A stretch of 64,000 nt of DNA from an uncultured virus (IMG/VR IMGVR_UViG_3300048889_000033) (lineage: Duplodnaviria > Heunggongvirae > Uroviricota > Caudoviricetes). A model generated the notes under the pieces. It ran no database searches. It worked only from the letters and a program-made list of their open reading frames with translations, and had not been told where the DNA came from. Below are positions 19,727 to 64,000 of this stretch, piece by piece. The stretch is from the IMG/VR virus record IMGVR_UViG_3300048889_000033. One strand, written 5' to 3'. The first letter of the stretch is position 1; the number at the start of each line of letters is the position of its first letter. A program made the translations under genes and the position numbers.

Positions 19727-19749
19727 TTATTTATTAGGGCCCACTTTGA

Positions 19750-19789: not shown

Positions 19790-19814
19790 AACAAGTTTTG
19801 TAACTCGTAATAAA

Positions 19815-45027: not shown

Positions 45028-48000
45028 ATGGGCAAAGCAGTACGAACGGACAATGAAGGGTTACCAATACCATCTACGAATGGTATGCAAACTGATACAT
45101 TGGAAATAGACAATGAGGGTCTGCCCGTGCCTCAAATAAAAAAAAAAGACGCTGGTGGCCCAGCTTCAAAAGCATCTCCATCGGGTTCTACACCCACTCC
45201 GACGAGTTCGGGACAACAACCTATAGCTTCGGGATCAGAATTACCACAAATAAAAAGTGATTTTGGCATCTTCGGTTTTGAGAACAAAAAACAAAAGATA
45301 ACTACTGCCGACGGTTTCGATATGCCTGCCGACCATAATAAACTCCCTGACTTCATAGCAGATAAGGAAAAGTATACTGCTGAAGCTCAAAAAAGGGTAT
45401 TGGACGGTAGCTATACGAGCGCCGATATTGACACTATAACTAAGGTAACCGGAAAATCCCGTAAAGCAGTAGAAGGATATTTAAAGGATAAATCATTGGG
45501 ACTTGCCACTGAAGACCAAGAACAATTACAACAAAAGAATGAGGAACTTAAACAGTCAATCGTATCCTACAATAAAGAAATGGGTACAACCCTCGACCCG
45601 AAGGATATATTATCATCTTCACAGAAAACGGCTGATTTCATACAGCAAGTGCAGAGGGCAAAAAAGACACTATTAGCTAAGGAAGCACAGCGGGTTGCTA
45701 CACTTAAAGCCGATCCAAATGGAGTTACGTATTCCATGAAAAATGGGCAGATAGTAACGACGCCAAATAAAGACCTCCCATTAATAAATCTTGACCCACA
45801 AGCATTCATTAACAAGTATGCCGATTATGAAAAAGTATTGCAGGATCATGCCGTGAAACTTACCATTGATGAAGATAGGAAAGCAGGAGTGGCCCCGGAT
45901 AAAACCGTTGTAAAAATAGCACAACGCTTAGACCCCGTAGGAATGGCGAGGGCACAAAAAGTAGAGAATACCCCAAAGGGATTGGATGCTATCAGCGACA
46001 CGGATATAAACCCATTCAAGGCGTTAGGTCATGTTGCAGAATCTGTTTTCGGTACAAAAGAAAAAGATGATCTCCTTAACTCAATTAAGGGAGAAGCAGA
46101 ACTTAAATATCAAAATGGATTACGGGAACTTGCCATAAATAAAATATCAACCGGCATCATAAACACCGAAGACCCTAAAAGTAAAGAGCTTATTAAAGAA
46201 GGTCAGGAACAACTAAAGCAAGTCGATGACAACGCCATATATAAATACCCCGCACTTGTAAAGCGAGAAATTGCCAGAGCAGTAAGCGAACGGATAGGAC
46301 GGGAAAGCGGTCAGTTGGAAGGCAGTTCGGTAGAATCATTACGCGGATTGGAAGAAAAAATACACGGCGCAAGTCGTGAAGATTACGTACGGGTTATGCA
46401 GGAAATGGGGTATTTTGATAATCCAAAAACTAAGGATGCAGCAGAACAATTGGTAGGTCAAACTGAACTATTTTCCGATGCCTCTTATGTTGGAAGCTTC
46501 GGAAGTAGTGTAATGCATCCCATTAAAGACCTAGGGTATTCTTTGGGAGATATTACTGGTTATCGAAATGCACGTGATGTATATACTTCTAAAATAAGCG
46601 ATGAGTTATTTCCTAAAGAGACAGCCAAATTGAAGGATCATGTTGCTGTGGTTAGAAATATCGTAAATACTACAGGGAATCTTATAGGTATGACGGCCCT
46701 TGCGGTGGGTACGGAAGGATTAGGTACAGAAGTAGGAATGAGCGCAAAGGCGGCCGGTCATTTGGGTAGTTACGTAAGTTTCGGAATACCTTCTTTCGAT
46801 GCCGCCTATAAAGAAAGTTATAATTTCCTTGATAACGATGCTGCAAGAGGTCTTTACGCGACCATGACGGCCATAACGAACGCCGAAGGTGGCAGACTAT
46901 TGGACTTAGGTAAAGTGGCAAGGATACCCGGCGTAAGCGACGCCTTTGCTAAGGTAGCGGATGGCATTACCAAAAAAACAATCAGCCAAGATGCAGTCCG
47001 GGAATTACTGGGAGAACAGACAAATAAATACGTTGACTTTGCCGTAAAATATGGTAAAAACGTAACCAAAGGGGCTGCCACGATGGCCTACTTTAATGCT
47101 ACCAATAGCATATTAAAAGCAGGTTTCGGTGATCCTTCGGTGAAAGCCGATGATATTTTACCTCAAACCGCTCACGCCTTCTTTGGGGGGCTTTTAGGGA
47201 TGTCAATCATGGGGGCATGGGGAGCCGCCGCCGACATGCGTAAGGAAGCCAATACGACCTATAAGGGGGGTATTTATAGCATGGCACTTAACCATGATGC
47301 CGCTGCTGATGTGTTTAAAATAGCCTTGGATAATGGTTCTTTGACGAAAGCTGAATACACCAATAAAATGAGCGTCCTTAATGGGGCGAAGATGGCAAAG
47401 GACGTTGTTGAATTGGCGGCACAAGAAAAGGAACTGAACTTAACCCATGACCAAAAGGCGGTATTTGTCGCCAATAAAACGGTAGAAGGTGTCCTGAAGG
47501 AAAAATTAAAGAATACACAAGGTGAAAAAGAAAAGGAGAAAATTCAATCCCAAATAGACCGATTACATAACCAATCAAACGAAATATTTGACGGACTTAA
47601 ATTTAATGAAGTCCTAGAGCCATTATATGACCTACATAATGCTGAAAAGGAATATAACAAGGCATTGCAAGATGTTAAGTTGGGTGTTATTACTGATAAG
47701 GAATTTGAAGCTAAAAAGAAAGCCTTTGAAAAGTTACAGTACAATTACTTTGAAGGCGGTATGGAAAAAGATGCCAAGAACAACGAAGTAAAAAGACTAT
47801 TAACTAAAGGCATTGAAAGCGGTGAAATTTCAGACACCTACAAAGCATATGAGCAGCATCCGGAACATCTTTTAAAATTCATTGCAGGCCAATCACAAGG
47901 GTTGGTGGAAGACGCGGATGGTAATGTTACCAAACATCCCATAGGCGGTAATGAAGCTGGTATGCGTGCCCAATTTGGCGACGCACTGGTAGATCATGCG

Positions 48001-51000
48001 CTTGAATCTCACCCATTACCAAGTGAATTTAAAGAACCCGAAGCAAAGCCACAACCGATTATTGTTCGTCATGCCGAAGCCGAAGAACCTATAGTACCCG
48101 GAGAGCCAGAAAATAAAAATCCACAGTTAACCGATTCTGGTAAAAAACAAGCCGAACAATTGGGCAAAGACTTTAAAGAAAAAGGAGTTATCCAAATAGT
48201 AAGTTCTCCCGTTGATAGGTCGTTGCATACAGCTAATATTGCTGCAAAAGAAAGTGGTGCATCTGTTAAACAAGACGAAAGGTTGGCCGAATATGACCCC
48301 CTAAAAGAATCATTGGATGAATTTGCCAATAGAGTAAATTCTGCCATGACTGACCTCAATAAATTAGGCTCAGAGACTGCCGTTGTTACCCATGGTAAAG
48401 TCTTGGGAATGATAGAGGCATTGGAAAAAAACAAAGGAGACATTGAAGCGGCAAAAAAAGATTTTGAAAATTCAAAGGAATATGATAACACGGAAGCCTA
48501 CGTACCACCATCTGGTGTATCTGTTATTCAACCGGGCGATATTCCTAATAGGGAGACTACAACGATATCCCCTGAAGAAAAGCCAATAAGTAAAGAGGCA
48601 CAGGCGTATAGAGACAGTGCAGCCCGTTTACGAATAGAGGGCGACGAAGAAGGGGCTAATAAATTGGACGAAGAAGCTAATCTGCTTGAATCGGGAGCAC
48701 CACCCATCGAAAAGCCCCCAGTAACCACACCAAGTCAAACGCCCCCCGAACAGTGGTCAGCCATCCGTAAGGAGAAATTACTTGAAATAGAGGGAGCTGG
48801 AAAGGTATTTGAGGAACAAACGGGGAAGCCTTGGTCGGAAACGCATAAAACCGCAATGGCTAATTTGCAGGCCATGTACCCCGATAAAAATGTATACGAT
48901 GCTGCTAAGGCCCGGGCCACCGAAATAGCCACGAAATACGATTTAGGACAAATATATAACCCAACATCGGAAGACCTTGCCGTATTACAATATTTAAAGG
49001 CCGAAACCGACTCACGTATAAACAATACAGTTGATCGGATGGCATCAGAGGATCAATCTAAACGAACTGGTGCCTTATTGGAGTATGAACAATATAAAAA
49101 CGACCTTATTACTATTGCAAAAGCAGCCAATCCACAAGAGGCAGGTCGGGCGTTTAATATCCGACAGTTAGAAGCCAAAGTTATTGACGAAAACAATGGT
49201 TTACAGATTCGTCGGATGGATTTTATGAAAGCAAAGGGAGGCGAAAAGCTAACCGCTGAAGAAATGGAATGGACAGCAAATCAGTGGGAGAAAGAAAAGG
49301 ACGTTATGCGTCGGGATCAGGAGTTGAAAGAGAAGGGCATGCAGGAAGCATTTGATAAGCAGATGCAGCAACTCCAACGGGACTATGAAAAGAAGTTAAA
49401 GGATGTTGGTAAAGAAAAGAAAGCTCCAACAGCTAAGACAGAAAGAACACTTAGTCAGAAAGGCAAAGAAGTTGCAGATAAATTACGTAAAGGGTTAAAA
49501 TCGGATAAGGGGACATTACAGGCTGATATAACATTGGGTTTGAAAGATTTGGCCGTTGAAGCCGTAGCAAAATTGATAGAAGGCACCGCCGATATTGCGC
49601 AGGCAATTGTAGAAGTTTTGAAAGATGCTAAATTTAAGGGGTTAACAAAAGAGGATTTAACTAATCACATATTGGGCATTCTTGACCGGCAGGAAAACAA
49701 AGCCGCTGCCTTTGAGAAGATAAAAGACCATGCCGAATTAAATAAAGTATCGGACGTTACCACCGACATGGTATCAAAGAACTTTATACGGGATTATGTA
49801 AACGCCCATATCGGCGAGTCTGATCCAAAGGATGTGCTAGATGCCGCCTTGAATGAATTAAAAACCGTCCTTCCCGACGTTACTAAAGAAAAACTTCGTG
49901 AAGCCTACCTGAAAGAAGGTGAATTCAAACAACCTTCTCGTAAAGACTTAGAAACTCAATATAGTAAAGACCGTAAGGAATTACTTGCTATTACTAAGTT
50001 GGAAGAAGACATAGACGACCTTAAAGCAGAACAGGAATTAAAAGTACGTGGTAGTAAGGGTGAGCGTGAAAAAGGTGAACACGAAACCAAGCTAATTAAC
50101 GAGAAGGACGAATTGTTAGCTATTAAAGACCGTTCTGAAAAGGAGCAAAAGAGGTTAATAGAACTTAATTCAGAACTTGAACGTATACAAGCTCGTAGGG
50201 AAAAAGAAAAGGTTGAAAAGAAGCCGGTAGGGGCTAAGGAAGTCAGCGATCGGGAACAGGAAATTTTAGACAAGATAAAAGACGAACAGGATAGGTGGGA
50301 TGCAGAAAAGAAGGCTGCCGTACAAGCCAAAGAAGATTATCGTAAACTGGAAACAGAGCGTAACCGGCAAATAGCCGTAGTAGATAAGTTAAACGAAAAA
50401 AAGAAAAGGTTATTAGCTTCTGGGGAAAAGGAGTCATCGAAAAAGGGGGAGGTTACCAAGGATACCCCTGAAATAGAAGCCGCCAAAAAGGAAATAAAAG
50501 AAATAGAAAAACAAATCAGCGAAGGAAACGCCGAAGTAAAAAGGATAGAAAGAGAGCAAGAAAGGGAGAATGACAAGGGTAAAAAGCGTATCCTGAAAAT
50601 AGCGGAGATGGATGCTAAAATCCGCCGGTTAAAGGAACGCGGTGAACTTATAAAGGAGCATAAGAAAAAAGATCCTGAAGAAATAGACAAGGCCATTCAG
50701 GCCGCTGAAAATAGGCTTAAAAAGACACTTAATGATAAGGGGCTGAAAGTATCCAGTGAGGATAAGTATGCCAAATCCGGGGCCGAAGCAAGGGCTAAAA
50801 CGCATAATGACCGTTTGGATACCATATCCAATAAAATTCAGGATAGGATTGACAAAGGTGATTTATCTACTGACCAAAAGGAAGCTCTTTCAAAACTGAA
50901 GGCTAAACTTGATGGGGCAAAAATTAAACTGGATGAAAATTCGGCATTAAGTAATGACCCTATTATTAATCAAGGGTTGGAACTGTTGAAGAAAGCCAAG

Positions 51001-53136
51001 TCTGAATTTGACAGGGAATCAGGGATTAAAAACATATCGGTACTTGGTGAGTTTAAAAAGGACTTGCAAAAAGCCATAGACGGATTTAATAACGATAAAT
51101 CAGAATCTGAACAAGACATAAAGTTACAACGAACCAAAGATCAATTAAGACAGAGTACGGCTGAAACTCAAAGAAAGATAAATGCAGGTGAATTTGAGGA
51201 TAAACCTATTGTTGCCTTAAATAAATCCGATGCCGAATTAGTTAAATTACAAATAGAAAAAAATAAGGTAGAATCTGAATACAGAAAACGACAACAGGAA
51301 ATAGAGGATAAGAATAAGTCGAAGTTAAAACAGGCTGCTGAATTATTAAGAGCCTCATATGTAGCTGCTTTGATATGGAAGTTTGGCACATTGGCGAAGG
51401 TTGCTACGATGGCAGTTGTACGACCTACTGTAGAGGCTACCACAAAACTGACCGGAGGAAAGATATTTGATACCTTATTCCCGTCTATTTCAACGGCTGC
51501 AAAAAGAGGGGGGGAAAGTACCAGTATTCGATCTATAGCCAAATCGTACGAGGCTCAGTTTGCTCACTATGGTGAAAAGAAGATGCAGGAAATTTACGAC
51601 CGGTCAAATAAAAAGTATGAAGAATCTGAAAAACAATACAACGACTATATTCCGGAGCACGAAAAGATAAAAGAGGAAAAAGGCACGGATTCGATAGAAT
51701 TTAAGCAGTCCGAAAGGAAATTACAAGACCTGAAGGACAAACGGGATGGTGATATGTTGAGTGCTGTTGCTAACTTTGCGTATCAATTTATTGGAGGGTC
51801 TTCTATTCAAGATGCATTAAGTGCCCTTATTCACCGTTCTAATAAAATAGAAAAAGAATTCGGGGATTTTAACGAAGAAAGTTTCAAAGACGGAACAGCA
51901 GTAGACAAGATAAATTATGTAATCGGATTTATTGGCCGGTCGCATAGTGCTTTGAAAACATTTTCAGGTCGCGCTAGTTTCGTATCCGGATTTGTGGCAA
52001 GAATGGAAGGGGCTTTGGCTGATGGGGTGGACATAACCAAGTCAGACAAGATAATGGAGATAGCCAATGATTCTTATTTGGATTGGGATAGAGGCAAGTA
52101 CCAGCAGAGTAACTTCGTTACCGATACGATGAATAAAATATCTCAAACCCTTGAAAAATCACAAGAGGGGAAACCTTGGGAGAAATATGCTAAAGCCACA
52201 TCCTTCTTTTTAAAATTAGATTTGCCTATCACAAGAGTGCCAGTAAACATACTCCATGAATCCGTTGTAGAATATACGGCAGGGTTCTTTAAGGCGACCT
52301 TCATGGCCGCCAACGCCTACCGGAAGGCAAATAACGAGATTAAAATGAGCGAAAACCTGATGCCGGGGGAAAAGGAATTCAAGGATGCATTGCGTGAAAG
52401 GGTTCAAGGAATGGATGCTACGCAGGCAGCTACTATTGCAAGGTGCTTCAGAAAGGGTTCTTTTGGATTGGGTATATTTGCCCTTGTTTCTATATTAGGG
52501 GTCGCTCAGTTTGGAGGATTCTATGCCAAAGGCCAAAAGAAGAAAAAGCCTGACCAATTGGAAGAGGGGGAATTAAATCCCGGCGAAATAATGATAGGAA
52601 AAACAAAGCAGGGAGAATTATTGACCAAAATAATAGAGCATACCCCGGCCCTGTATCCTAGCTTATTTGCAGCCAATATGATAAAGGTCTATAAAGACAA
52701 TGTACATAAAGGGACTGAAACATGGGAAGGGGCAGGAAAGGCCTTAATGGCTAATTTGGAGGCTATGCAGGATGCTATACCTCAAACAAAAATATTGAAT
52801 CCCATTGGCGTTTCAGAAGATGCAGGAAAGGGAGCATTAAGGAGTATTGGTAAGGCGTGGGAGCCCTTCGACGTAGATGCCGATGGCAATCTAATTGAAA
52901 GGAAGCCATTTGATTTCAAAGACCAAATAAATTTAGCTATCGGCAGACGTGGTGAAGTATTGACTGAGGAAAATTATAAACAGGCTGCCAAGGTTGCCAA
53001 TTCCTATAAGAAGGAAATTCAGGCAGCATATAAGGAAGGTCAAACAAAGGAACGAATCGAAACTATTAAGAAAGAACGTGACGAAGCCATTGATGAAATA
53101 TATAGACTCAATAAAGAAGAAAACCCTAGTAAATGA
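45028..53136 (+). CDS. Giant ejection/polyvalent protein with internal histidine-phosphatase domain
   Basis: 2702 aa; helical and coiled-coil regions; IIVRHAE..LT..GKKQA..IVSSP..RS..TA..L.E..ES..R..VVTHG at about 48055-48430. Confidence 0.8.
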   Translation: MGKAVRTDNEGLPIPSTNGMQTDTLEIDNEGLPVPQIKKKDAGGPASKASPSGSTPTPTSSGQQPIASGSELPQIKSDFGIFGFENKKQKITTADGFDMPADHNKLPDFIADKEKYTAEAQKRVLDGSYTSADIDTITKVTGKSRKAVEGYLKDKSLGLATEDQEQLQQKNEELKQSIVSYNKEMGTTLDPKDILSSSQKTADFIQQVQRAKKTLLAKEAQRVATLKADPNGVTYSMKNGQIVTTPNKDLPLINLDPQAFINKYADYEKVLQDHAVKLTIDEDRKAGVAPDKTVVKIAQRLDPVGMARAQKVENTPKGLDAISDTDINPFKALGHVAESVFGTKEKDDLLNSIKGEAELKYQNGLRELAINKISTGIINTEDPKSKELIKEGQEQLKQVDDNAIYKYPALVKREIARAVSERIGRESGQLEGSSVESLRGLEEKIHGASREDYVRVMQEMGYFDNPKTKDAAEQLVGQTELFSDASYVGSFGSSVMHPIKDLGYSLGDITGYRNARDVYTSKISDELFPKETAKLKDHVAVVRNIVNTTGNLIGMTALAVGTEGLGTEVGMSAKAAGHLGSYVSFGIPSFDAAYKESYNFLDNDAARGLYATMTAITNAEGGRLLDLGKVARIPGVSDAFAKVADGITKKTISQDAVRELLGEQTNKYVDFAVKYGKNVTKGAATMAYFNATNSILKAGFGDPSVKADDILPQTAHAFFGGLLGMSIMGAWGAAADMRKEANTTYKGGIYSMALNHDAAADVFKIALDNGSLTKAEYTNKMSVLNGAKMAKDVVELAAQEKELNLTHDQKAVFVANKTVEGVLKEKLKNTQGEKEKEKIQSQIDRLHNQSNEIFDGLKFNEVLEPLYDLHNAEKEYNKALQDVKLGVITDKEFEAKKKAFEKLQYNYFEGGMEKDAKNNEVKRLLTKGIESGEISDTYKAYEQHPEHLLKFIAGQSQGLVEDADGNVTKHPIGGNEAGMRAQFGDALVDHALESHPLPSEFKEPEAKPQPIIVRHAEAEEPIVPGEPENKNPQLTDSGKKQAEQLGKDFKEKGVIQIVSSPVDRSLHTANIAAKESGASVKQDERLAEYDPLKESLDEFANRVNSAMTDLNKLGSETAVVTHGKVLGMIEALEKNKGDIEAAKKDFENSKEYDNTEAYVPPSGVSVIQPGDIPNRETTTISPEEKPISKEAQAYRDSAARLRIEGDEEGANKLDEEANLLESGAPPIEKPPVTTPSQTPPEQWSAIRKEKLLEIEGAGKVFEEQTGKPWSETHKTAMANLQAMYPDKNVYDAAKARATEIATKYDLGQIYNPTSEDLAVLQYLKAETDSRINNTVDRMASEDQSKRTGALLEYEQYKNDLITIAKAANPQEAGRAFNIRQLEAKVIDENNGLQIRRMDFMKAKGGEKLTAEEMEWTANQWEKEKDVMRRDQELKEKGMQEAFDKQMQQLQRDYEKKLKDVGKEKKAPTAKTERTLSQKGKEVADKLRKGLKSDKGTLQADITLGLKDLAVEAVAKLIEGTADIAQAIVEVLKDAKFKGLTKEDLTNHILGILDRQENKAAAFEKIKDHAELNKVSDVTTDMVSKNFIRDYVNAHIGESDPKDVLDAALNELKTVLPDVTKEKLREAYLKEGEFKQPSRKDLETQYSKDRKELLAITKLEEDIDDLKAEQELKVRGSKGEREKGEHETKLINEKDELLAIKDRSEKEQKRLIELNSELERIQARREKEKVEKKPVGAKEVSDREQEILDKIKDEQDRWDAEKKAAVQAKEDYRKLETERNRQIAVVDKLNEKKKRLLASGEKESSKKGEVTKDTPEIEAAKKEIKEIEKQISEGNAEVKRIEREQERENDKGKKRILKIAEMDAKIRRLKERGELIKEHKKKDPEEIDKAIQAAENRLKKTLNDKGLKVSSEDKYAKSGAEARAKTHNDRLDTISNKIQDRIDKGDLSTDQKEALSKLKAKLDGAKIKLDENSALSNDPIINQGLELLKKAKSEFDRESGIKNISVLGEFKKDLQKAIDGFNNDKSESEQDIKLQRTKDQLRQSTAETQRKINAGEFEDKPIVALNKSDAELVKLQIEKNKVESEYRKRQQEIEDKNKSKLKQAAELLRASYVAALIWKFGTLAKVATMAVVRPTVEATTKLTGGKIFDTLFPSISTAAKRGGESTSIRSIAKSYEAQFAHYGEKKMQEIYDRSNKKYEESEKQYNDYIPEHEKIKEEKGTDSIEFKQSERKLQDLKDKRDGDMLSAVANFAYQFIGGSSIQDALSALIHRSNKIEKEFGDFNEESFKDGTAVDKINYVIGFIGRSHSALKTFSGRASFVSGFVARMEGALADGVDITKSDKIMEIANDSYLDWDRGKYQQSNFVTDTMNKISQTLEKSQEGKPWEKYAKATSFFLKLDLPITRVPVNILHESVVEYTAGFFKATFMAANAYRKANNEIKMSENLMPGEKEFKDALRERVQGMDATQAATIARCFRKGSFGLGIFALVSILGVAQFGGFYAKGQKKKKPDQLEEGELNPGEIMIGKTKQGELLTKIIEHTPALYPSLFAANMIKVYKDNVHKGTETWEGAGKALMANLEAMQDAIPQTKILNPIGVSEDAGKGALRSIGKAWEPFDVDADGNLIERKPFDFKDQINLAIGRRGEVLTEENYKQAAKVANSYKKEIQAAYKEGQTKERIETIKKERDEAIDEIYRLNKEENPSK

Positions 53137-55190: not shown

Positions 55191-55595
55191 TTGTCTTCCA
55201 AGACTTTCCAGTTTCTAGCGGATACTATTAACGGGGTTATTCAAGAAACTCCGGCATCCTTTTATTTCCCCTGTGACCAAATAGTACCGTTAGGCATACA
55301 AATCGTACGTGATTTCGATGATGATTTATGCATAATCGCTAAAAGGGTATATGTTATAAGGTATGGGCAAGACTTATTCGGGTCTACACAATTTACCGAT
55401 CTGAATAGTTTCATGCAGTATCGAAATTCCGGTTGTCATTGTTGTTCGGAATGTGGGTCTTATGTCCTTATTGCAAATGGGTGTTTCCTTACAATAAATG
55501 GTTGTCATATAGTTATAAAGCCTTGTAAGGGGATAGTCCTGAAGGCAAACGGTTGTTATTTAACAATTAACGGATGTACAATAAATCTTAATTAA
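55191..55595 (+). CDS. Cys-rich putative structural protein
   Basis: CHCCSEC and tandem ANGCFLTINGC / ANGCYLTINGC; TTG start. Confidence 0.6.
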   Translation: MSSKTFQFLADTINGVIQETPASFYFPCDQIVPLGIQIVRDFDDDLCIIAKRVYVIRYGQDLFGSTQFTDLNSFMQYRNSGCHCCSECGSYVLIANGCFLTINGCHIVIKPCKGIVLKANGCYLTINGCTINLN

Positions 55596-56018: not shown

Positions 56019-59000
56019 ATGAAAGGACTTATTATAACCATAGGATTTATTTTATGTTTGGCAACTTCATTCGCTCAAACACCTGTTAACAGAAGTTCGG
56101 CAGCAGTGACTGCCGTTGATGCGAGGTTAAAGACGAGTTTAAACTTTTATCTTCCCGTAGCAACTGACACAACCCTTAACGGAGGTTTGGATTCTCTTGG
56201 TGCCATGCTATTGGTGATAAAACCGGGGGATACGTCATTGTATCTTCGTATTCCTCGTCCCGGTGGTAATAAATGGGCAAAAATGTTAAGAAGTGGGGAT
56301 GCAGGCACAGGAGTGCTGACTTTTAATACCAGAAACGGAAATGTAACTTTGTTATTTGCAGATGTAGTTGCTGCTTTAGGGTATACGCCACCCAACCCAA
56401 ACGGAACAAATCTACAATACATAGCAGGAGATGGAAGTAAGGTCACTTTCCCTACTATTCCCGCCCAATTTAACCCGATAGCAGGATATGGTATATCTAT
56501 AACTGGAAGCTACCCTAACAAGACGTTTACGGCCGATACAGCGGTTTTATTCCCGGCAGTCCGGGCAACAATATCAGGCGGCGGCGGCCCCGGAATTTCG
56601 TCTTTAAATGGACTCACAGGGGCTACGCAAACATTTGCTAATGGAACTGCCGGTACGGATTTCAATATTTCTTCGGTCGGCACAACTCATACATTTAATG
56701 CCCCTATTGTAAGCGGCACGAATACAGGTAAAGTAACACCCTCTCTTTTTAATACATGGAATGCTAAATTGAGTAATATTACAGGTTTGATAACGGCAGG
56801 AACAAATGTAACCATCACGGGGTCGGGAACATCCGGTAGCCCATATGTTATAAATTCAAGTGGGAGTGGGGGGACAGACTCAGGCAGAAATGCAGGCTTT
56901 GGGTTATCTAAAAATATTTCAAGTACCACGGTTACATTTTCTTTGGATACCACATTGGGAGGTACATTAAACGGAATTCATAGCCGAAATTATAATGATT
57001 TAAGGTATTTACAAATAGGCGCAACAGCAGGAGGGGATTTGACAGGTACGTATCCAAATCCCACATTAGCCACGGTTATAAGTGCTGGAAGTTGTACCAA
57101 TTGTAATTTAACGTATGATGCTAAGGGAAGATTGTTGGTTGCAACAAATGGAAGTGGGGGTACCGGAGGCTTTAACAGCAATATAGGTTCAGGATACCGT
57201 TGGGCTGTTCCCAATTCAAATCAAATTAAAACAGTCTTCCCATCTTTCGGTCAATTAATTGATTCTACTTCCAATACAAACGCTTTGACGATAGGGCCGG
57301 ATACTACAAAGATGTCCACCATCAAAGCATTGAATGATACCACTGATAACTTTGTTTACTCTACCGGATTTCAAACGTCGGGTAATTCCGTTCCTTTCTT
57401 GGGCCATTCTTATACATTTGGAACGAATGCATCTAGCCCCGCTTTCCGATGGACTTCACTGGTAGCTGCTGGTATGGGAGCAACTGAAGTTAATTTAGGC
57501 GTTGCTGGTAAAACAATGATGTACCAAGACCCAAAGAACTATCAGGGGCCAGCCGCCATGACGCAAACCCTTACCGATATCCCCGTGAAGACTTTCGCCA
57601 TGAAAGCCCTTTTCTTTGATTTCGGATTAAATGATATGGGACAAACAGCACCCGCATATACAGTCGCCAATTTTAAGGCCGCTTACGATACGGTATTAAA
57701 CTATGCTATTAATACCCGTGGATGGTTTCCTTCGCAGATAGTTATAATGGGGGAAGAATGGATCGGAACAGCGGGGCTGAATTATTACGGAACGGTTACC
57801 GGCAATGCTGCTCCTACACAAGCAAGGGCGCAACAGTTTGTACAGGCTATCAAAGAAACAGCCAGAAAATGGGGCTGTAAATATGTAGACAACTACTATT
57901 CCATCCTGCAAAACGATACGACACTTATTAGTGGAACTGGCAGTGTGCACCCGAACGATAGCGGCTATGCATATATCGCTCGTCGTGCATTGCAAAAATT
58001 AGCCGTTTCAACCGCTACGGCATCAAACACAACCGATTCATCTACATTTGTTACCAACACTCATTTACAAACTTACGTTGCAGCACAAGCCATCGCAAAC
58101 AACCCCCAATTAGTTCAATTCACCGTAGGGGATAATGGCGAAAAGACACCAGCTAACGGCGTAACGACTTATCAGGATTCATTGCTAATAGGAGCTACAG
58201 GTATCACCGTCCATCAGCAGGGCATAGGAATGCCAGTAGGTCGCGCAAGGGGTGGTATATGGGCCAGCTTCAATGATACCACAGGTACGGTTACGCTGCA
58301 CAACGGGGCCTTTACCGATAGTTCCTATTTTGAAATGGTCGCCTATTTTACGACAAAGGCACCACAACGAACAAGTGATGATAGTAATTTCATAGCAGCG
58401 GTATTGGGGGCCGGCGGTTCGCTGACATCCTTGCAGGAGGGATATATTACGACCTTCTTTAACACGCTCAAATCAAACAACCTTTGGGATAAGATAATAG
58501 CAGGCCATATGCTGTTTCTGGGTTCAGCAGCCGCTACAAAATTCAATATAAAGAATCCTGCTAATACCGATGCCGCCTTTAGGTTGACATGGCATGGGAC
58601 AGGAACGTTTGCCTCAAATGGCTGGACATCCGATGGCTCTACGGGATACGCTGACATGCATTTTAACCCATCGCTGGATGCGACCCAAGACGGGTTAGGT
58701 TTTGGAGCCTACGTAAGAGGAGGGAGCACGGGTAGCACCGTTTATATGATGGGGAATTACGATGGAAGTTCTATAACCAATGATGTGGGGATAGATAACT
58801 CTTCAGGCATGTTCGGTGGTTGTAATTCCCCATTGGCTCAAATAAACTCAATAATACCGGCGGCTTCAACCAGATTAATTTATGTAAACAGAGTTAACAG
58901 TGGTAGCGTAAAATATTACAGGGACGGCACTCTTGTAGGTACAAGTTCGCAAACGTCAGCAACTCCCTTTAACGGGAACGTGTACTTAGGCTGTTTTAAT

Positions 59001-59141
59001 TTCAATGGTACTCCTAACTTTTTCTTTGGTAACCGGATAACCTTTAGCATTATAACCGATGGGTCCCTGAATGATACCGACGAAGCCAACCTGAATACGG
59101 CCATCAACACATTTTTAACATCTTGGGGTATCAATATATAA
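56019..59141 (+). CDS. Signal-peptide-bearing fibre/spike-like protein with SGNH hydrolase and LamG-like domains
   Basis: MKGLIITIGFILCLATSFA/Q; V.TFN.R.G.V.L, ALGYTP and GGDLTGTYPNPTL fibre motifs; FLGHS, NLGVAG, FGLND, VHPN; YRDG.LV..VYLG. Confidence 0.8.
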   Translation: MKGLIITIGFILCLATSFAQTPVNRSSAAVTAVDARLKTSLNFYLPVATDTTLNGGLDSLGAMLLVIKPGDTSLYLRIPRPGGNKWAKMLRSGDAGTGVLTFNTRNGNVTLLFADVVAALGYTPPNPNGTNLQYIAGDGSKVTFPTIPAQFNPIAGYGISITGSYPNKTFTADTAVLFPAVRATISGGGGPGISSLNGLTGATQTFANGTAGTDFNISSVGTTHTFNAPIVSGTNTGKVTPSLFNTWNAKLSNITGLITAGTNVTITGSGTSGSPYVINSSGSGGTDSGRNAGFGLSKNISSTTVTFSLDTTLGGTLNGIHSRNYNDLRYLQIGATAGGDLTGTYPNPTLATVISAGSCTNCNLTYDAKGRLLVATNGSGGTGGFNSNIGSGYRWAVPNSNQIKTVFPSFGQLIDSTSNTNALTIGPDTTKMSTIKALNDTTDNFVYSTGFQTSGNSVPFLGHSYTFGTNASSPAFRWTSLVAAGMGATEVNLGVAGKTMMYQDPKNYQGPAAMTQTLTDIPVKTFAMKALFFDFGLNDMGQTAPAYTVANFKAAYDTVLNYAINTRGWFPSQIVIMGEEWIGTAGLNYYGTVTGNAAPTQARAQQFVQAIKETARKWGCKYVDNYYSILQNDTTLISGTGSVHPNDSGYAYIARRALQKLAVSTATASNTTDSSTFVTNTHLQTYVAAQAIANNPQLVQFTVGDNGEKTPANGVTTYQDSLLIGATGITVHQQGIGMPVGRARGGIWASFNDTTGTVTLHNGAFTDSSYFEMVAYFTTKAPQRTSDDSNFIAAVLGAGGSLTSLQEGYITTFFNTLKSNNLWDKIIAGHMLFLGSAAATKFNIKNPANTDAAFRLTWHGTGTFASNGWTSDGSTGYADMHFNPSLDATQDGLGFGAYVRGGSTGSTVYMMGNYDGSSITNDVGIDNSSGMFGGCNSPLAQINSIIPAASTRLIYVNRVNSGSVKYYRDGTLVGTSSQTSATPFNGNVYLGCFNFNGTPNFFFGNRITFSIITDGSLNDTDEANLNTAINTFLTSWGINI

Positions 59142-59143
59142 AT

Positions 59144-60289
59144 ATGAAAAAACTACTAATATTCATACTGATTCTCGCAAGCGCGTATAGTTACGGGCAG
59201 CGGATTACCCCTATAGGTACAACGAAAGATACAGTTGAGGTGAAGAATGCTTTTACGGTTGATAGCTTGTTGACAGTAAAAAACCTTACTGTATTGGGAT
59301 TAGATACGACAAACTATAAAATAGGCGTTGTGGACGCTAATGGTAAATTCAGAAAAATGGTATGGCCGACTTTTGGCAGTAGCGGGAGTGATACCTTGAA
59401 ACTAGCATTCGCGGGAACGGGGGAGCGGCCTTTTTGGGGAACCAATGACACCCTTCACGGAAAGACTATTAAAGGACTTGGAAGCGTATCCATAACCAGT
59501 GGGGCCGATAGTACAATAAATGTGCAGTTAACAGGCTTTACTACTGGGCGGATTCCTTTTTCCTCATCGTCATCCGTGTTAACTGACAACGCCAATCTTA
59601 AATGGGATGCGACCGGCAGCACGTTGGTAATTGGCGGCAGTAGTGGTTCGTTTACTCAGAATATATATACTACCGGAAATTCAGTAAGCGGAAATTTCGG
59701 TAATTCAGGTGGGCAGAGAAATTTTCTAGGAGGAGGCACATTTACTGATAACACAACTGCTGCAAGTGGATCGAAGAGCTATTGGTTTGCAGACCAAATA
59801 TCCGGCCCAACATATGCTGCCACTAACTCGAGTGTTACTTACAATAACATATCTACCTTAACCGCTGTCGCCCCAACGGCTGGCACAAATATAACCGCTA
59901 CGCATAGATTTGCTATACGAACTTTTGATAATAGTGCAGGTTCCGGTAGCCTATTTGTGGATGGGGGTTCGTTTTTAGGAGGAGGTGTCTACCAAAAATT
60001 AATATCCATTACCAGCAACTATACAATCACCAGTTCGGACTATCAGATACTGGTAGATGCGACAGGTGGAAATATTACGCTCACCCTTCCGGCCGTTTCG
60101 AGTGTGTATGACGCAACGTTGGGAGTGGGGATTATATACTCTATAAAGAGAATAGATGCCAGCGGAAATACGGTAACCGTGCAGCGCGCGGGAAGTGATC
60201 TAATCGATAATGCGACTTCATTTACATTAACGTCCCTACAATCGAAGTCTTTGCAGGCCGCTAGCGGGGGAAATTGGTGGATTTATTAA
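59144..60289 (+). CDS. Signal-peptide-bearing fibre-like protein
   Basis: Start MKKLLIFILILASAYSYG/Q at 59144; C-terminal ITSNYTI..DY.ILVDATGGNITLTLP..IKRID...ID...L.......W module. Confidence 0.78.
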   Translation: MKKLLIFILILASAYSYGQRITPIGTTKDTVEVKNAFTVDSLLTVKNLTVLGLDTTNYKIGVVDANGKFRKMVWPTFGSSGSDTLKLAFAGTGERPFWGTNDTLHGKTIKGLGSVSITSGADSTINVQLTGFTTGRIPFSSSSSVLTDNANLKWDATGSTLVIGGSSGSFTQNIYTTGNSVSGNFGNSGGQRNFLGGGTFTDNTTAASGSKSYWFADQISGPTYAATNSSVTYNNISTLTAVAPTAGTNITATHRFAIRTFDNSAGSGSLFVDGGSFLGGGVYQKLISITSNYTITSSDYQILVDATGGNITLTLPAVSSVYDATLGVGIIYSIKRIDASGNTVTVQRAGSDLIDNATSFTLTSLQSKSLQAASGGNWWIY

Positions 60290-60299
60290 TTTTTTTAAC

Positions 60300-60935
60300 A
60301 TGTGTAATACTGTAGGCAGAAACAGAATGTGTCCAGAGTGTAACTTAAATTTAATAAAAAATTATTATTCAAAAAGATGTGGGGAATGCGACATAAAAAG
60401 AAAAAAATCATTGAAAGGAGATAAAAGCCCTTTATGGGATGGAGGAAGAATTTGTAAAAAATGTCAAAAATTAATGGAGAGACGCCCAAAGCATGGGATA
60501 TGTTGGGATTGCTATTCGGCTGATAACTATAAAGGAAGGCCTAAATGTTTAAGTTGTGGTAATCTAATGTCTCGATATAATTATACAGATTCTTATTGCC
60601 AAAAATGCTATAGGGGTGATCGAACTAAAAGATGGAATCCTAATTTAGAATCAGAAATAAGAGAAAATGGTAGAACGATAAATCCTAAATATTACGAATG
60701 GAGATTAAATGTGTTTAATAGAGATAGGTTTCAGTGTCAAAAATGTGGGGATAATAAAGGAGGTAATCTCGTAGCTCATCATATTTTTAATTTTCATAGT
60801 CATAAAGAATTAAGAACTGATATAAACAATGGAATAACCTTATGTGAAAAATGTCACATAGTTTTCCACAAAATATATGGTAACAAGAACAATAATAAAA
60901 AACAGATTAATGAGTTTCTTAATATATGTAATTAA
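60300..60935 (+). CDS. HNH endonuclease with multiple Zn ribbons
   Basis: Several CxxC pairs; WR..VF.RD.FQCQKCG, L.AHHI, NGITLCEKCH..FH; very AT-rich. Confidence 0.9.
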   Translation: MCNTVGRNRMCPECNLNLIKNYYSKRCGECDIKRKKSLKGDKSPLWDGGRICKKCQKLMERRPKHGICWDCYSADNYKGRPKCLSCGNLMSRYNYTDSYCQKCYRGDRTKRWNPNLESEIRENGRTINPKYYEWRLNVFNRDRFQCQKCGDNKGGNLVAHHIFNFHSHKELRTDINNGITLCEKCHIVFHKIYGNKNNNKKQINEFLNICN

Positions 60936-60944
60936 ACCTAAACC

Positions 60945-61301
60945 ATGAGAAAAGGACTAATCAGTGGATTGTTGGTTGTCGCTGCTATAGCGGTTGTTAT
61001 TATAGTTATTGCCAATAGCAGCCCAACAACTTATTCGCCAACATTCAGCGCCACGGCCACGCTGAACTTCCCTAGTACGGGAGCGAGCTCTTCGAGCGAT
61101 TTAACTATCACGGTTACCGGCGCGGCGGATGGAGACGCTGTTTTTATAGGGGTGCCTAACGGCTCTATAGTAGCTAATTCAATTTTCACCGCGTGGGTAT
61201 CAGCGTCCAATACTGTTAAAATAAGGTTTTCAAATCTGGATATTCTTAATGCAGGAGATCCCGCATCGGGGACTTTCCGGGCAGTCGTAATCAAACAATA
61301 A
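60945..61301 (+). CDS. Small beta-sandwich fibre/decoration-type protein with N-terminal membrane anchor or signal
   Basis: MRKGLISGLLVVAAIAVVIIVIA, then LNFPS..ITVTGA..GD.V..AWVSA.NTV.IR..DPASG. Confidence 0.65.
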   Translation: MRKGLISGLLVVAAIAVVIIVIANSSPTTYSPTFSATATLNFPSTGASSSSDLTITVTGAADGDAVFIGVPNGSIVANSIFTAWVSASNTVKIRFSNLDILNAGDPASGTFRAVVIKQ

Positions 61302-61312
61302 ACCTACATACT

Positions 61313-62074
61313 ATGGCATTGCATAATGATTTAAACGCAGAAGTAAAGAATGACCTTGTTAATTTTGCCTCTGCTATAAACGGGCAAGCGTACATATGCC
61401 TGGGCGATACGGCCGTTGGAGATTCCTATGTTCGGATATATTATTATGATTCGGCCTCCACGGCAACGGCAGACGGAGAGGCAGTTCTATCCGCGACCGG
61501 AATGGGTGGAACGGGTAGGTTTTTGCAACAGTATTCTAATTATAATACACTCATAAATTTGCCTTCTATCCCCGCCGCCATCCCTTCCGGTGCTATGCTT
61601 ATGTGGGGAACCGCTTCTGCACCCTCAGGATGGCTGCTATGTGATGGTACGGCTGTATCTCGCACGGGCAGTAATGCAACATTGTTTGGAGTCATAGGAA
61701 CTACTTTTGGAGCCGGAGATGGCTCTACAACTTTCAATCTTCCCGACTATCGTCAAAGGTTTCCATTAGGTAAAGCGGCCAGCGGTACTGGCAGCACATT
61801 GGCAGGGACAGGGGGTAGCATTGATCACTTACATTCAGTTGACCCCGCAAGCACTTCTACGAGCAGTGACGGTTCTCACAATCACGGAGGCGCAACAGGC
61901 ACGCCAAGTTCAACGGTGGCTGCTACCAACTTAACTGGATCGGCTGCGAGTACGAATCACACGCATAGCATTTCAACTGATGGTGCGCACACGCACACGG
62001 TGGATATAGCTGCTTTTAATAGTGGGACAGCCAACCCTCCATTTTTAGCAATTAACTATATCATCAAACAATAA
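61313..62074 (+). CDS. Tail fibre protein with tail-collar domain
   Basis: IPSGAMLMW..APSGWLLCDG.AVSR..LF.VIGTTFG.GDGSTTFNLPD, H.H repeats, PPFLAINYIIK. Confidence 0.92.
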   Translation: MALHNDLNAEVKNDLVNFASAINGQAYICLGDTAVGDSYVRIYYYDSASTATADGEAVLSATGMGGTGRFLQQYSNYNTLINLPSIPAAIPSGAMLMWGTASAPSGWLLCDGTAVSRTGSNATLFGVIGTTFGAGDGSTTFNLPDYRQRFPLGKAASGTGSTLAGTGGSIDHLHSVDPASTSTSSDGSHNHGGATGTPSSTVAATNLTGSAASTNHTHSISTDGAHTHTVDIAAFNSGTANPPFLAINYIIKQ

Positions 62075-62078
62075 AAAT

Positions 62079-62106
62079 TCGGGCGTCACACCCCTGTAAC
62101 GCCCGA
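62079..62106. terminator. GC-rich intergenic hairpin (U-tract on the minus strand)
   Basis: TCGGGCGT..ACGCCCGA preceded by AAAAAT. Confidence 0.5.
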
Positions 62107-62147
62107 CAAATATTGACCAATAGCGTTTCCACTATCAATGTAAATAT

Positions 62148-64000
62148 ATGCTAAAATCGTTATATTTTATACTGGTAGTCGCTTGTCTTGCGTCAACTTC
62201 TCAGGCTCAATCCTACTATGGCTTTGACTCTACTTCATTTAATGGGCAGCGGGCGATAGTTTTTATGCCCGCTGGAGCGGGGCCATTCGCATTAAGCCTT
62301 CAGTTTGGACCTGCTGCTGAAACGCTGGATCAAAGCACATGCGGAATGTGTACGCTCTACAATACTGGGACCCCAAAGCTCATTAAAGCCGGTGGTAACC
62401 CTTGCAATTTCGTAAAAGGAAACGGAGATTCAGCGCACGTCATTGTGATAAAAATTCAATTACCCGATTATAATGCAGGTAAATTCAGCGATGATATGGC
62501 GCTTTATTGGCCAGCAATCAAGACTTATCTTGGAGGGAAATTGGATTCAACAAAATACGCTGATGGTACTTATAAATACATTAGCATACAAGGCGAAGAA
62601 CACGGAGCCGATGTTATTTTCAATTCCGTTACGCAAAATACAGCCACTAATCATTGCTTCTTTAATGGCGATCCGGGATGGGTATTTAAGCATATAAAGA
62701 AACTATACGTAGCCCGCACAAATGACATTTGTCAGTACGGTAGCTATACAAATTCGGCAGCGTATGCCAATTCTGCTACTGAGAAAGTTTGGTATTACCG
62801 GGTAAATGGGGCTTCGACTAATGAGCCGGCGCTACAAACCGGGCTGAATACCTACAGCCCCGGCGTCGTGCAACGGCTCAGGAATTACGTTCTTTCAACT
62901 TCTCAACTGAGCGATACTTTTTACAGTGTTCAAAGCCCCTATTATACAGAAAATGTTTTCAGGGATTTGGTAGATGATACTTTTGCCCATCCGCCGCCGA
63001 ACTATATTGCAAAGGTGTATACCATCTTTTCTCTATCCACTTATGCCCAGCACGATCAACAACCACCTCAGAATTTCTTTGACGGTTATTTGGTAGCTGA
63101 TCCGAAGAATGGCGTTTTAACAGATACTACTTCCCCAGGTAATCCCCAACATAAATGGGATACGACTGCCGGCGCTCCGCAGAAGCCCAACTACAATTTT
63201 GCAGGGAATGTAAACGGCACGATATGGCCCGGTAACCGGCAGATAAGATTGATATTCGACCTTGGCGGCGTTCCTAACCTGAGAGATACAACAAAGAAAT
63301 TCAGCTTAACGGACATATACGGACTTAGTGGGGAGGAAGCGGGACATCCGATGTACTTCTATAATCTCGACTCCTTGTTTGGCATGACGCCAATTAATGC
63401 AGCATGGCACTTAGCACGACCGGATAGCTTAATGAAGCCTTTCGATACGCTTACTACAACCGGGTTCGGCGCAGGATGGACGAATATTGGAGCCCATGAT
63501 TCTATGCGCTACCTGATGGTAATGTTAACCACCTCGTCTTCCCATGCTTCCAATTTCAATGAATTGGTTTTTTACGGCCATTACGTAGGTGATACAACCG
63601 GACGTGCGGCCCAACTTGCGCCACCGACATACATGGGGCCATTGCCGTCCAAAAAGAGTGCAGCGTACACGGTCGGCAAACTTAACGGTACGAATCTATT
63701 TCAGGGACTTGGTGCGGCCAGTACGGCCCACGATGGGGATTTCCGACTTTACACCAGTAAATGGTATTACGATACAGCTAATGTCCGGAATGTACCAACC
63801 GGTTATAAATTCTGGGAAAGTGCGGATGTTAACGTAGCGTGGGCATTGGCTTTAAATGCTGCCGGCAAAACCGTTCACTATACTAACCAATCTTCCAATC
63901 AGTATGCGGCAGCACAAGGGTCGCAGGCCGATGTAGATAGCTCAGGCTTGGAGCCGGAAGTACCTACCAGTTATATGCGGGCTGCTGATTTTGCATTTTG
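62148..64000 (+). CDS. Signal-peptide-bearing multidomain protein (more than 617 aa, truncated), possibly carbohydrate-binding or carbohydrate-active
   Basis: Manual translation MLKSLYFILVVACLASTSQA/QSYYG..., open to the window end; discoidin-like IFDLG..LTDIY..RYL..FNELVFYG; absent from the ORF track. Confidence 0.8.
   Translation, partial: MLKSLYFILVVACLASTSQAQSYYGFDSTSFNGQRAIVFMPAGAGPFALSLQFGPAAETLDQSTCGMCTLYNTGTPKLIKAGGNPCNFVKGNGDSAHVIVIKIQLPDYNAGKFSDDMALYWPAIKTYLGGKLDSTKYADGTYKYISIQGEEHGADVIFNSVTQNTATNHCFFNGDPGWVFKHIKKLYVARTNDICQYGSYTNSAAYANSATEKVWYYRVNGASTNEPALQTGLNTYSPGVVQRLRNYVLSTSQLSDTFYSVQSPYYTENVFRDLVDDTFAHPPPNYIAKVYTIFSLSTYAQHDQQPPQNFFDGYLVADPKNGVLTDTTSPGNPQHKWDTTAGAPQKPNYNFAGNVNGTIWPGNRQIRLIFDLGGVPNLRDTTKKFSLTDIYGLSGEEAGHPMYFYNLDSLFGMTPINAAWHLARPDSLMKPFDTLTTTGFGAGWTNIGAHDSMRYLMVMLTTSSSHASNFNELVFYGHYVGDTTGRAAQLAPPTYMGPLPSKKSAAYTVGKLNGTNLFQGLGAASTAHDGDFRLYTSKWYYDTANVRNVPTGYKFWESADVNVAWALALNAAGKTVHYTNQSSNQYAAAQGSQADVDSSGLEPEVPTSYMRAADFAF

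Follow-up and report, generated by a model that had tools for sequence, protein, structure and literature searches.

The window analysed here is a 64,000-nucleotide stretch of an uncultured tailed phage (IMG/VR record IMGVR_UViG_3300048889_000033). Its 3' end, from position 56019 onward, holds a cassette of late genes, three of which (56019, 59144 and 62148; genes and their proteins are named after the window position at which they start) encode proteins combining putative Sec-type signal peptides with an excess of the sequon used by Bacteroidota for O-glycosylation. The same cassette encodes an HNH endonuclease (60300), a small protein with a hydrophobic N-terminus (60945) and a leaderless short fibre (61313). 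Particles of tailed phages, including their fibres, are understood to assemble in the cytoplasm, and the first-pass annotation of this DNA had proposed that the three leader-bearing proteins are exported fibres glycosylated by the host.

Leaders were sought among 67 non-overlapping open reading frames (ORFs) of at least 60 amino acids (aa), using as a rule an N-terminal 11-mer with a mean Kyte-Doolittle hydropathy of at least 2.7. Six ORFs have such a strongly hydrophobic N-terminus (5036, 35419, 56019, 59144, 60945 and 62148), the last four being genes of the consecutive cassette; 59144 appears in the ORF listing from an upstream TTG at 59123, and 35419 is a small membrane protein. The N-termini of 56019 (MK-GLIITIGFILCLATSFA, followed by QTP), 59144 (MKK-LLIFILILASAYSYG, followed by QRI) and 62148 (MLK-SLYFILVVACLASTSQA, followed by QSY) each show a basic n-region, an uncharged h-region, a Ser at position -3 and a Gln at +1 (Q20, Q19 and Q21, respectively), with Ala, Gly and Ala at position -1. 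A Gln at +1, the so-called Q-rule, is described as a Bacteroidetes trait (excerpts of PMC5837995 and PMC10653852), and the composition of the three leaders supports their reading as canonical Bacteroidota signals of the Sec/signal-peptidase-I type. Consistently, Gln20 is the sole invariant column in a 44-sequence alignment of 56019 homologues, and an [ASGC]Q pair is present within residues 13-40 in 45 of 47 further homologues that share the N-terminal domain of 56019. AlphaFold models residues 2-17 of 56019 as helical, with block values of 88 and 75 for the predicted local distance difference test (pLDDT). The first-pass annotation had also assigned an N-terminal hydrophobic anchor to 60945, and this feature was found together with the three signal peptides: an uncharged stretch of 20 residues, probably a signal-anchor since it exceeds the length of a usual cleaved leader.

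Other readings of these N-termini were considered and rejected. The leader Cys of 56019 and 62148 is not kept in homologues, which show no conserved lipobox as expected of lipoproteins. No C-terminal sorting domain typical of type IX secretion system (T9SS) cargo was detected in 56019, 59144 or the full-length homologues of the related viral locus L002, at E up to 0.01-1 with Pfam and up to 0.1 with NCBIfam. Finally, the homologue consensus contains no conserved internal Met from which a leaderless isoform could start. An early-region protein of 293 aa (5036-5917) likewise bears a Q-rule leader (IMA followed by QIP), together with a TPM phosphatase-type domain (E 2e-32).

Sequons were counted in the strict form D-[ST]-[AILVMT] and compared with expectations from 20,000 composition-preserving shuffles. 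The 56019 protein contains 11 sequons against 4.16 expected (p=0.0017), 59144 contains 6 against 2.09 (p=0.0125) and the 617 visible residues of 62148 contain 12 against 2.08 (p=0.00005); jointly, their 29 sequons against 8.34 expected were matched by none of the 20,000 shuffles. Just these three of the 52 ORFs tested reached p<0.05, whereas the remaining 49, when pooled, hold 42 sequons for 44.4 expected, and the Ser/Thr-rich leaderless protein 31411 holds 2 for 4.0. The two exceptions among leader- or anchor-bearing proteins are 5036 (0 against 1.3) and 60945 (0 against 0.6), both of them devoid of strict sequons. Counts made by hand in the first-pass annotation (11 in 56019, 12 in the visible part of 62148, 2 in 31411, and 6 of the first 7 Asp of 59144) proved exact. 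The sequon density of the three leader proteins reaches 1.42 per 100 aa. As a host yardstick, 400 kb of Pinibacter aurantiacus gave 1.28x the expectation for leader proteins (0.38 per 100 aa) and 1.01x for the others; ORFs were called crudely there, from ATG starts only, and leaders were assigned leniently.

Among relatives, too, sequon excess goes with the leader. A search for 56019 homologues yielded 236 at E up to 0.001, most of them carried by contigs of 60-97 kb, and 120 of these were listed. A leader is present by our rule in 84 of the 120 listed homologues; among the 36 others, two are leader-bearing by eye and two start inside the protein. Counted from residue 31 onward, the 84 leader-bearing proteins hold 1010 sequons against 418 expected (2.41x) and the 36 others 108 against 140 (0.77x). 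Control motifs do not follow this trend in the leader set: E/N/Q/K-ST-hydrophobic stands at 0.64-0.90x, D-ST-non-hydrophobic at 0.73x and the reversed motif at 0.86x, although D-hydrophobic-S/T is mildly raised (1.36x). As a replicate, an exhaustive phmmer search with residues 1-134 of 56019 against a library of 1.84 billion sequences returned 506 matches, from which 127 new representatives were counted: 47 with the N-terminal domain, 73 leaderless fibres and 7 leader-flagged proteins sharing the shaft repeat only. The 47 N-domain proteins, in which the leader was recognised by rule in 44 cases and by eye in two, the domain being internal in the remaining one, hold 401 sequons against 150 expected (2.67x), in contrast to 173 against 280 (0.62x) in the 73 leaderless repeat-only fibres. 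Similarly, in four related viral loci, 19 leader ORFs total 133 sequons against 39.3 expected (3.4x) and 44 leaderless ORFs total 35 against 34.4; two of these loci, L005 and L006, have two proteins in common, and minus-strand shadow ORFs below position 3500 of L002 were dropped. The comparisons that the first-pass annotation had suggested as checks, with shuffled sequences and between leader-bearing and leaderless homologues, thus both come out in favour of an enrichment tied to the leader.

The residues favoured at these sites are informative as well. Within the leader set, the ratio of observed to expected sequons by third residue is 3.65 for L, 2.67 for V, 2.27 for I, 2.16 for M, 2.09 for T, 1.81 for A and 1.72 for S, with D, E, N, P, Q and H depleted; at the modified position itself, the ratio is higher for Ser (3.21) than for Thr (1.79). 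According to excerpts of a review of Bacteroidota glycosites (PMC12871550), the order at the third residue is L, I, V, T, A, S, M, with N, E, Q, P and D below 1%, and Ser is slightly preferred. Both preferences of the leader set match those reported there. Export and host O-glycosylation appear well-founded because the leaders are canonical, the sequon excess is tied to the leader and residue preferences are those of glycosites: it is very probable that 56019, 59144 and 62148 are exported, and likely that the host O-glycosylates at least some of their sequons. Table 1 gathers the features on which the following paragraphs rely.

Table 1. Features of the window, and of two Cellulophaga phages used for comparison. 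Positions refer to the window unless a locus is named.
Feature	Position	Strand	Basis
56019 protein, 1040 aa: leader, N-terminal module, shaft, predicted SGNH esterase, probable tip	56019..59141	+	ORF, Pfam, homologues
56019 signal peptide, aa 1-19, cleavage predicted between SFA and Q20	56019..56075	+	Sequence reading, alignment
56019 conserved post-leader module, aa 20 to about 280	56076..56858	+	Invariant columns among homologues
56019 SGNH/GDSL hydrolase domain, aa 460-651	57396..57971	+	Pfam Lipase_GDSL_2
56019 C-terminal part, aa 690-1040, sequon-poor	58086..59138	+	Atlas lead, sequence comparison
59144 protein, 381 aa: leader aa 1-18 (SYG, then Q19), sequon-rich N-part, fibre-tip module	59144..60289	+	Sequence, comparison
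HNH endonuclease gene inserted in cassette	60300..60935	+	Pfam HNH; 15 PHROG families, 11 HNH endonuclease
60945 protein, 118 aa: 20-residue N-terminal anchor, small Ser/Thr-rich beta-type domain	60945..61301	+	Sequence
61313 protein, 253 aa: leaderless short fibre, Phage Tail Collar domain, HxH repeats	61313..62074	+	Pfam, PHROG
62148, 5' 617 codons of a predicted 1030-aa enzyme; signal peptide aa 1-20 (SQA, then Q21)	62148..64000	+	Sequence, relatives
Glycan gene cluster, early or middle region	13367-17139, perhaps to 19726		
Glyco_trans_1_2	13367-14326		Family match
PHROG glycosyltransferase	14520-15197		Family match
Second HNH endonuclease gene, within glycosyltransferase cluster	15314-15940		PHROG 374, E 2.5e-67
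GT2	15941-16525		Family match
FkbM-type methyltransferase	16522-17139		Family match
Cellulophaga phi18:3 leader-bearing proteins annotated as virion components	L031 2892-8584		
Cellulophaga phi10:1 leader-bearing proteins annotated as virion components	L033 4748-11779		

The 56019 protein has the layout of a modular fibre. Its post-leader module contains the motif RSSxxVTxxDxRLKxxLNFYLP and the sequon D58-S-L, which stays a sequon in 43 of 43 aligned rows; invariant columns are dense over residues 20-280 in 10 close homologues that differ in their C-terminal parts. The domain lies at protein residues 1-25 in all but one of the N-domain matches among the 150 listed. A Gly/Ser/Thr-rich shaft follows, whose repeat occurs 3-10 times in leaderless fibres. 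The central domain matches Lipase_GDSL_2 (63.6 bits vs a cut-off of 32.9) and exhibits the SGNH blocks G-H-S462, G-L-N-D536 and V-H643-P; the Asp three residues before the SGNH His is not seen in 56019. Membership of this domain in the SGNH/GDSL hydrolases agrees with family cut-offs, and an esterase activity is predicted. In the Atlas, the C-terminal part groups, as a lead, with Concanavalin A-like lectin/glucanase clusters (98% viral, score 0.91). A leaderless fibre of 670 aa in L006 has a C-terminus with 32% identity to residues 817-973, and no sequon of 56019 occurs beyond residue 753. This part is probably a ConA-like lectin serving as receptor-binding tip. Homologues keep the N-terminal module and swap in GDSL, SASA esterase, pectate-lyase-like, BNR or other domains, and DUF5907 and Collar domains are present among them. 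A monomer model of residues 1-460 was poor (pLDDT 55.7, predicted template modelling score 0.22).

Relatives of 56019 were also sought in cultured phages and in bacteria. A tblastn search of 50,697 phage records returned no match at E 1e-5, and the first 194 aa gave chance-level matches only; against viral contigs, 56019 alone gave no match, and an alignment query gave 4 loci. No homologue was found by a pattern scan of one genome each for 185,579 prokaryote species, nor any family member by profile search in two Chitinophagaceae genomes. Since the pattern scan was empty, there is no sign of prophage carriage.

In the 59144 protein all six sequons lie within the first 125 aa. In L002 this tip is fused to the end of a leader-bearing fibre of 1386 aa, whose C-terminus shows 76% identity to residues 81-381 of 59144, and the tip motif also occurs on the leaderless spikes P0136 and P0138-P0140. 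The description of 56019 and 59144 as fibre-like in the first-pass annotation is therefore upheld by shaft repeats and tip modules that both have in common with leaderless phage fibres and spikes.

The third leader-bearing protein, 62148, is of a different nature. The window ends within its gene, and its full length of 1030 aa is seen in the related loci L001 and L002. A leader is present in 10 of 11 homologues, and N656-E657 and E799 are invariant in the 12 sequences of the family. No Pfam, NCBIfam or PDB sequence match was obtained, and PDB-sequence searches with profiles A3 and A2 returned 0 matches. A fold search with residues 521-1010 of a low-confidence model of the family (pLDDT 46.4) nevertheless matched the GH39 structure 5jvk_A (Z 15.2, root-mean-square deviation 4.6 over 332 aligned aa), 4zn2_A (Z 14.2) and, with Z about 10-11, heparanase, GH51 and GH30 enzymes. 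We take 4zn2 to be PslG, a periplasm-facing exopolysaccharide hydrolase. As a lead rather than proof, the modelled fold points to a clan GH-A (GH39/PslG-like) glycosidase. Bacterial relatives of 62148 sit in ordinary chromosomal surroundings in Chitinophagaceae and Sphingobacteriales, those in L008 and L009 adjoining a gene read as rpoB from the start of its product; they are leader-bearing and sequon-rich (20 vs 4.8, 14 vs 2.7, 17 vs 5.9, 9 vs 4.9 and 10 vs 5.0 expected). Three sequons are kept throughout the family: D426-S-L (12/12), D937-S-V (12/12) and D27-S-T (11/11). Given such chromosomal relatives, 62148 would be an exported host-type glycosidase and not a fibre. In this respect the original proposal of three exported, glycosylated fibres holds in part: the leaders, the leader-linked sequon excess and the fibre-like nature of 56019 and 59144 stand, and the reading of 62148, which is kin to chromosomal secreted Chitinophagaceae proteins, as a fibre does not.

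The remaining cassette genes do not share the leader-sequon combination. The 60945 protein is 91% identical in L002, where it directly follows the fibre gene, and gave no family match except a weak one to PPC (E 0.09). The leaderless 61313, which lies inside the exported cassette, is 98% identical in L002 and matches Pfam Collar (78.4 bits vs a cut-off of 24) as well as 17 PHROG families, 13 of them tail or tail-fibre. The HNH gene 60300 is not found at this place in L001, despite 91% identical DNA, or in L002, and both HNH genes of the window look like homing endonucleases.

Comparison of the related loci suggests that the cassette travels. From 60933 onward, window DNA is 91% identical to L001 and 85% identical to L002, and L002 is otherwise unrelated to the window, with a virion module that includes an SU10-type capsid protein. 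The high cassette identity together with the unrelated remainder of L002 indicates that the cassette is mobile between phages. In L001 and L002 the genes after it encode small membrane proteins and a PAS protein and form a lysis-type region; L003, L005 and L006 show the order of leaderless structural or fibre genes, a leader-bearing run of fibre- or enzyme-like genes, then small membrane proteins. The PAS protein (140 aa, PAS_9, E 2e-8; L001 4868-5290, L002 13315-13737) is an odd member of a lysis-type region. Just after the cassette of L003, a protein of 223 aa (19701-20372) that begins with a membrane or leader segment contains 8 sequons for 0.7 expected.

We give an even chance to the proposal that the late operon ends, on its 3' side, in a portable cassette whose products recognise the host or cut glycans and undergo maturation beyond the cytoplasm. 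In the late phase of infection, 56019, 59144 and 62148 would be made with Bacteroidota-type Sec leaders and, judging from their sequences, cross the inner membrane unfolded. Signal peptidase I would cut before Gln20, Gln19 and Gln21, respectively, and, as the Q-rule implies, a host cyclase would turn these residues into pyroglutamate. The sequon statistics suggest that host O-glycosylation would load Ser and Thr chiefly in proximal regions, sparing the tips. Folding would take place in the periplasm, where the fibre-like proteins would probably trimerise. As neither a T9SS domain nor a conserved lipobox is present, the exported proteins should stay periplasmic until lysis, and lysis-type genes follow the cassette directly in L001 and L002. 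At lysis, the fibre-like proteins would dock on particles made in the cytoplasm as glycan-shielded appendages that bind or modify receptors; 62148 may dock too, or act as a free exopolysaccharide hydrolase. Attachment to the virion, argued by analogy, appears about evenly balanced for 56019 and 59144 and rather doubtful for 62148.

The analogy comes from cultured marine phages. In Cellulophaga phage phi18:3 (Pachyviridae, NC_021794), gp085-087 all have Q-rule leaders, and phi10:1 (Assiduviridae, NC_021802) encodes five consecutive leader-bearing proteins, gp091-095. The records annotate seven of these eight (phi18:3 gp085-087 and phi10:1 gp091-094) as structural from tandem mass spectrometry (MS/MS) proteomics. 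Their genes lie after tail or structural genes and before holin-like and endolysin genes; in phi10:1, the leader run is followed by membrane proteins and then the endolysin. Pectate-lyase-type enzymes and a 'tail fiber protein' are among their products, and the leaders go unmentioned in the annotation. Their hosts are marine Flavobacteriia. In phi38:1, the fibres gp085 and gp087 have no leader. By analogy only, this MS/MS annotation is the sole experimental hint that such proteins may join particles.

Several observations weigh against maturation of the cassette proteins outside the cytoplasm followed by docking. Leaders were called by our own rule and by eye, not by a trained predictor; the cassette proteins, like their sequence relatives, are known from sequence; and both structure models are poor, with pLDDT of 46 for the 62148 family and 56 for 56019. 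The 7 repeat-only proteins flagged as leader-bearing show no enrichment (13 vs 23.5), and the leader and sequons of 62148 may simply have been inherited from its chromosomal kin. A single anchor that fits unrelated tails would be unexpected for a docking domain, and among the leaderless proteins of the phage itself, 61313 and perhaps 31411 are candidate fibres. Cellulophaga phages, moreover, share no cassette similarity with the window, the terminase being the sole BLAST-level match. A stretch with 82-83% identity to the N-terminal 118 aa of phi18:3 gp086 is found in phages of another family; one N-terminal module across phage families argues against tail-specific docking and keeps alive the possibility that the exported proteins act as free enzymes. 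The Cellulophaga leader proteins are also without sequon excess, in phi18:3 (1 vs 3.7, 1 vs 3.2 and 1 vs 2.9) as in phi10:1 (1 vs 2.9, 3 vs 2.4, 1 vs 4.1, 0 vs 1.4 and 0 vs 2.0), so the route does not generally include glycosylation. Sequon loading accompanies the leader in the window lineage yet not in marine Cellulophaga phages, in which sequons are depleted rather than enriched.

Among the alternatives, the strongest, which we hold to be possible though distinctly less probable than docking of the fibre-like proteins, is that the exported enzymes never join the particle and act, from the periplasm and later in free form, on surface glycans of the infected cell. Capsule, exopolysaccharide, O-antigen or lipid-linked precursors would be the targets, and receptor stripping, a block to superinfection, easier lysis or escape of the progeny from debris and biofilm the outcomes. 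A leader does route a protein away from the site of particle assembly, the cassette adjoins lysis-type genes in L001, L002, L003, L005, phi18:3 and phi10:1, and it moves among phages with unrelated virion modules. The domain types encountered (SGNH, SASA, pectate-lyase-like and BNR) are receptor-destroying ones, 62148 is kin to chromosomal secreted enzymes and has 4zn2_A among its fold matches, and adsorption could be served by the leaderless fibre candidate 61313. Yet a soluble enzyme hardly explains a shaft of 430 residues and a conserved post-leader module of 260 residues, the tips of 56019 and 59144 have homologues at the ends of leaderless virion fibres and spikes, and the seven analogous Cellulophaga proteins are annotated in the virions of two cultured phages. 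A sequon load of 1.4 per 100 aa, compared with 0.38 for host leader proteins, also better fits a long-lived extracellular part than a periplasmic one of short life.

A display of the fibre-like proteins on the infected or lysogenic cell through the post-leader domain, as adhesins or surface enzymes, is improbable. Such an arrangement would resemble MAT proteins, which have a leader, a conserved beta-rich domain, a fibre and a variable tip (excerpts of PMC10769870), and the position of the post-leader domain at the very N-terminus in nearly all listed matches would suit it. However, Pfam and NCBIfam searches of 56019, 59144 and the full-length 62148 homologue reveal neither a T9SS domain nor any other signal for export to the outer membrane, and the leader Cys is not conserved as it would be in lipoproteins. 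Furthermore, the genes belong to the late structural operon and not to a lysogeny region, no integrase was seen in Pfam and family scans of the window ORFs, and the pattern scan of 185,579 species genomes is without a 56019 homologue.

Lastly, it is very improbable that the hydrophobic N-termini are not export signals and the sequons a by-product of repeats in ordinary cytoplasmic tail fibres: leaders were indeed called without a trained predictor, D-S/T-x can occur in turns of beta-rich fibres and D-hydrophobic-S/T is slightly raised, but leaderless homologues with the same repeats are sequon-depleted (0.62-0.77x), enrichment within single genomes is confined to leader proteins, third residues show the same spectrum as in real glycosites, the Gln at +1 does not vary, and repeat-free leader-bearing enzymes (the 62148 family and its bacterial relatives) are enriched too.

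Extending the preferred reading, that of extracytoplasmic maturation and docking at lysis, we tentatively propose that many Bacteroidota tailed phages build their host-recognition apparatus in two compartments, with heads and tails made in the cytoplasm and fibres or depolymerases exported by Sec. With similarly limited confidence, the exported parts would receive a pyroglutamate cap and host O-glycans, fold in the periplasm and dock on fibreless particles at lysis; the glycan might be remodelled by the glycosyltransferase and methyltransferase cluster at 13367-17139. Docking would then be independent of virion type, so that the cassette could move between unrelated phages of one host. If this is true, a compartment and a host modification would be added to phage assembly, at a scale indicated by the leader-bearing homologues (at least 84 of the 120 listed), another 47 representatives and the 506 matches in the library of 1.84 billion. 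The glycan shield and pyroglutamate cap would explain how long-lived appendages are protected, and host O-glycosylation and Sec machinery would become host-range factors. Prediction, expression and engineering of Bacteroidota phage receptor-binding proteins would change as well, because protein expressed in the cytoplasm of Escherichia coli would be neither processed nor glycosylated. A direct test is within reach, since phi18:3 and phi10:1, both in culture, carry analogous leader proteins annotated as virion components.

The rest of the window is consistent with a phage of Bacteroidota. The large terminase belongs to PHROG 6681 and has 23-25% identity to its counterparts in Cellulophaga phages phi38:1, Calle and phi18:3, Flavobacterium podophages matching more weakly; other phage-type genes code for a primase-helicase, YqaJ, YopX, late proteins of 1587 and 2702 aa and the Tail Collar fibre, and tRNA genes are absent from the window. 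This terminase kinship and gene set indicate that the host is a member of Bacteroidota, and the chromosomal relatives of the 62148 family in Chitinophagaceae and Sphingobacteriales provide a lead toward a narrower host. Membership in Pachyviridae or Pervagoviridae is not claimed, the likeness being limited to the terminase at 23-25%. The glycan gene cluster, which is followed by 4 more ORFs without family as far as 19726, could modify the lipid-linked glycan reaching the exported proteins, or act on host surface polysaccharide or DNA.

Other genes deserve mention. A 350-aa protein (22231-23283) adjoining the terminase has GroES/Cpn10-like matches at both ends, and GroES-like proteins are encoded by Cellulophaga phages too. 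The 2702-aa late protein (45028-53136), judged by its size and position, is probably an internal or ejected virion protein; it includes a histidine-phosphatase (His_Phos_1) domain at residues 1011-1090. Directly upstream of the cassette, a 134-aa protein (55191-55595) without family match contains several copies of the Cys-rich repeat NGCxLTINGC. The last 177 residues of the leaderless 1009-aa protein 31411 (31411-34440) are 37% identical to a leaderless 355-aa protein of L003 (7388-8455), which sits two genes upstream of the leader-bearing fibre of that locus, and this common C-terminal part is a candidate shared virion part.

Compared with known systems, the cassette proteins resemble the substrates of the general O-glycosylation of Bacteroidota in their extracytoplasmic targeting and D-(S/T)-(L/I/V/T/A/S/M) sites, as described in excerpts of PMC12871550. 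The known substrates presented there are all cellular, and the word 'phage' is absent from the main text of that review (PMC12871550). Glycosylation is predicted here from sequence, and the sequon density in the window proteins is about 3-4 times that of leader proteins in one Chitinophagaceae genome. Full-text literature searches revealed no published description of exported or O-glycosylated fibres of tailed phages, the nearest being five Porphyromonas gingivalis prophage genes of unknown function whose products have predicted Q-rule signal peptides (excerpts of PMC10367356). These were interpreted as outer-membrane modifiers, and fibres, sequons or a link to the virion are not discussed in the same excerpts (PMC10367356). 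The MAT proteins of Bdellovibrio bacteriovorus are phage-fibre-like trimers with a signal peptide that are displayed on the surface; they are cellular, some have S74 chaperone-protease domains, and no glycosylation motif is reported in the excerpts of PMC10769870. Compared in layout, they resemble 56019.

Judged by its low-confidence model and predicted leader, 62148 would share with GH39/PslG-type enzymes a TIM barrel, a C-terminal beta-sandwich, the N-E and E motifs and secretion; unlike them, 62148 has an extra N-terminal part of about 500 aa and is encoded in the late operon of a phage. Classical tail fibres and tailspikes are leaderless and fold in the cytoplasm, coliphage G7C providing an example of an esterase tailspike. 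Like these, the 56019 family combines a proximal part that is conserved with a fibrous shaft and with distal modules of esterase, lyase, sialidase-like or lectin type that can be exchanged. Unlike them, 56019 carries a leader with an invariant Gln at +1 and sequons that appear to have been selected.

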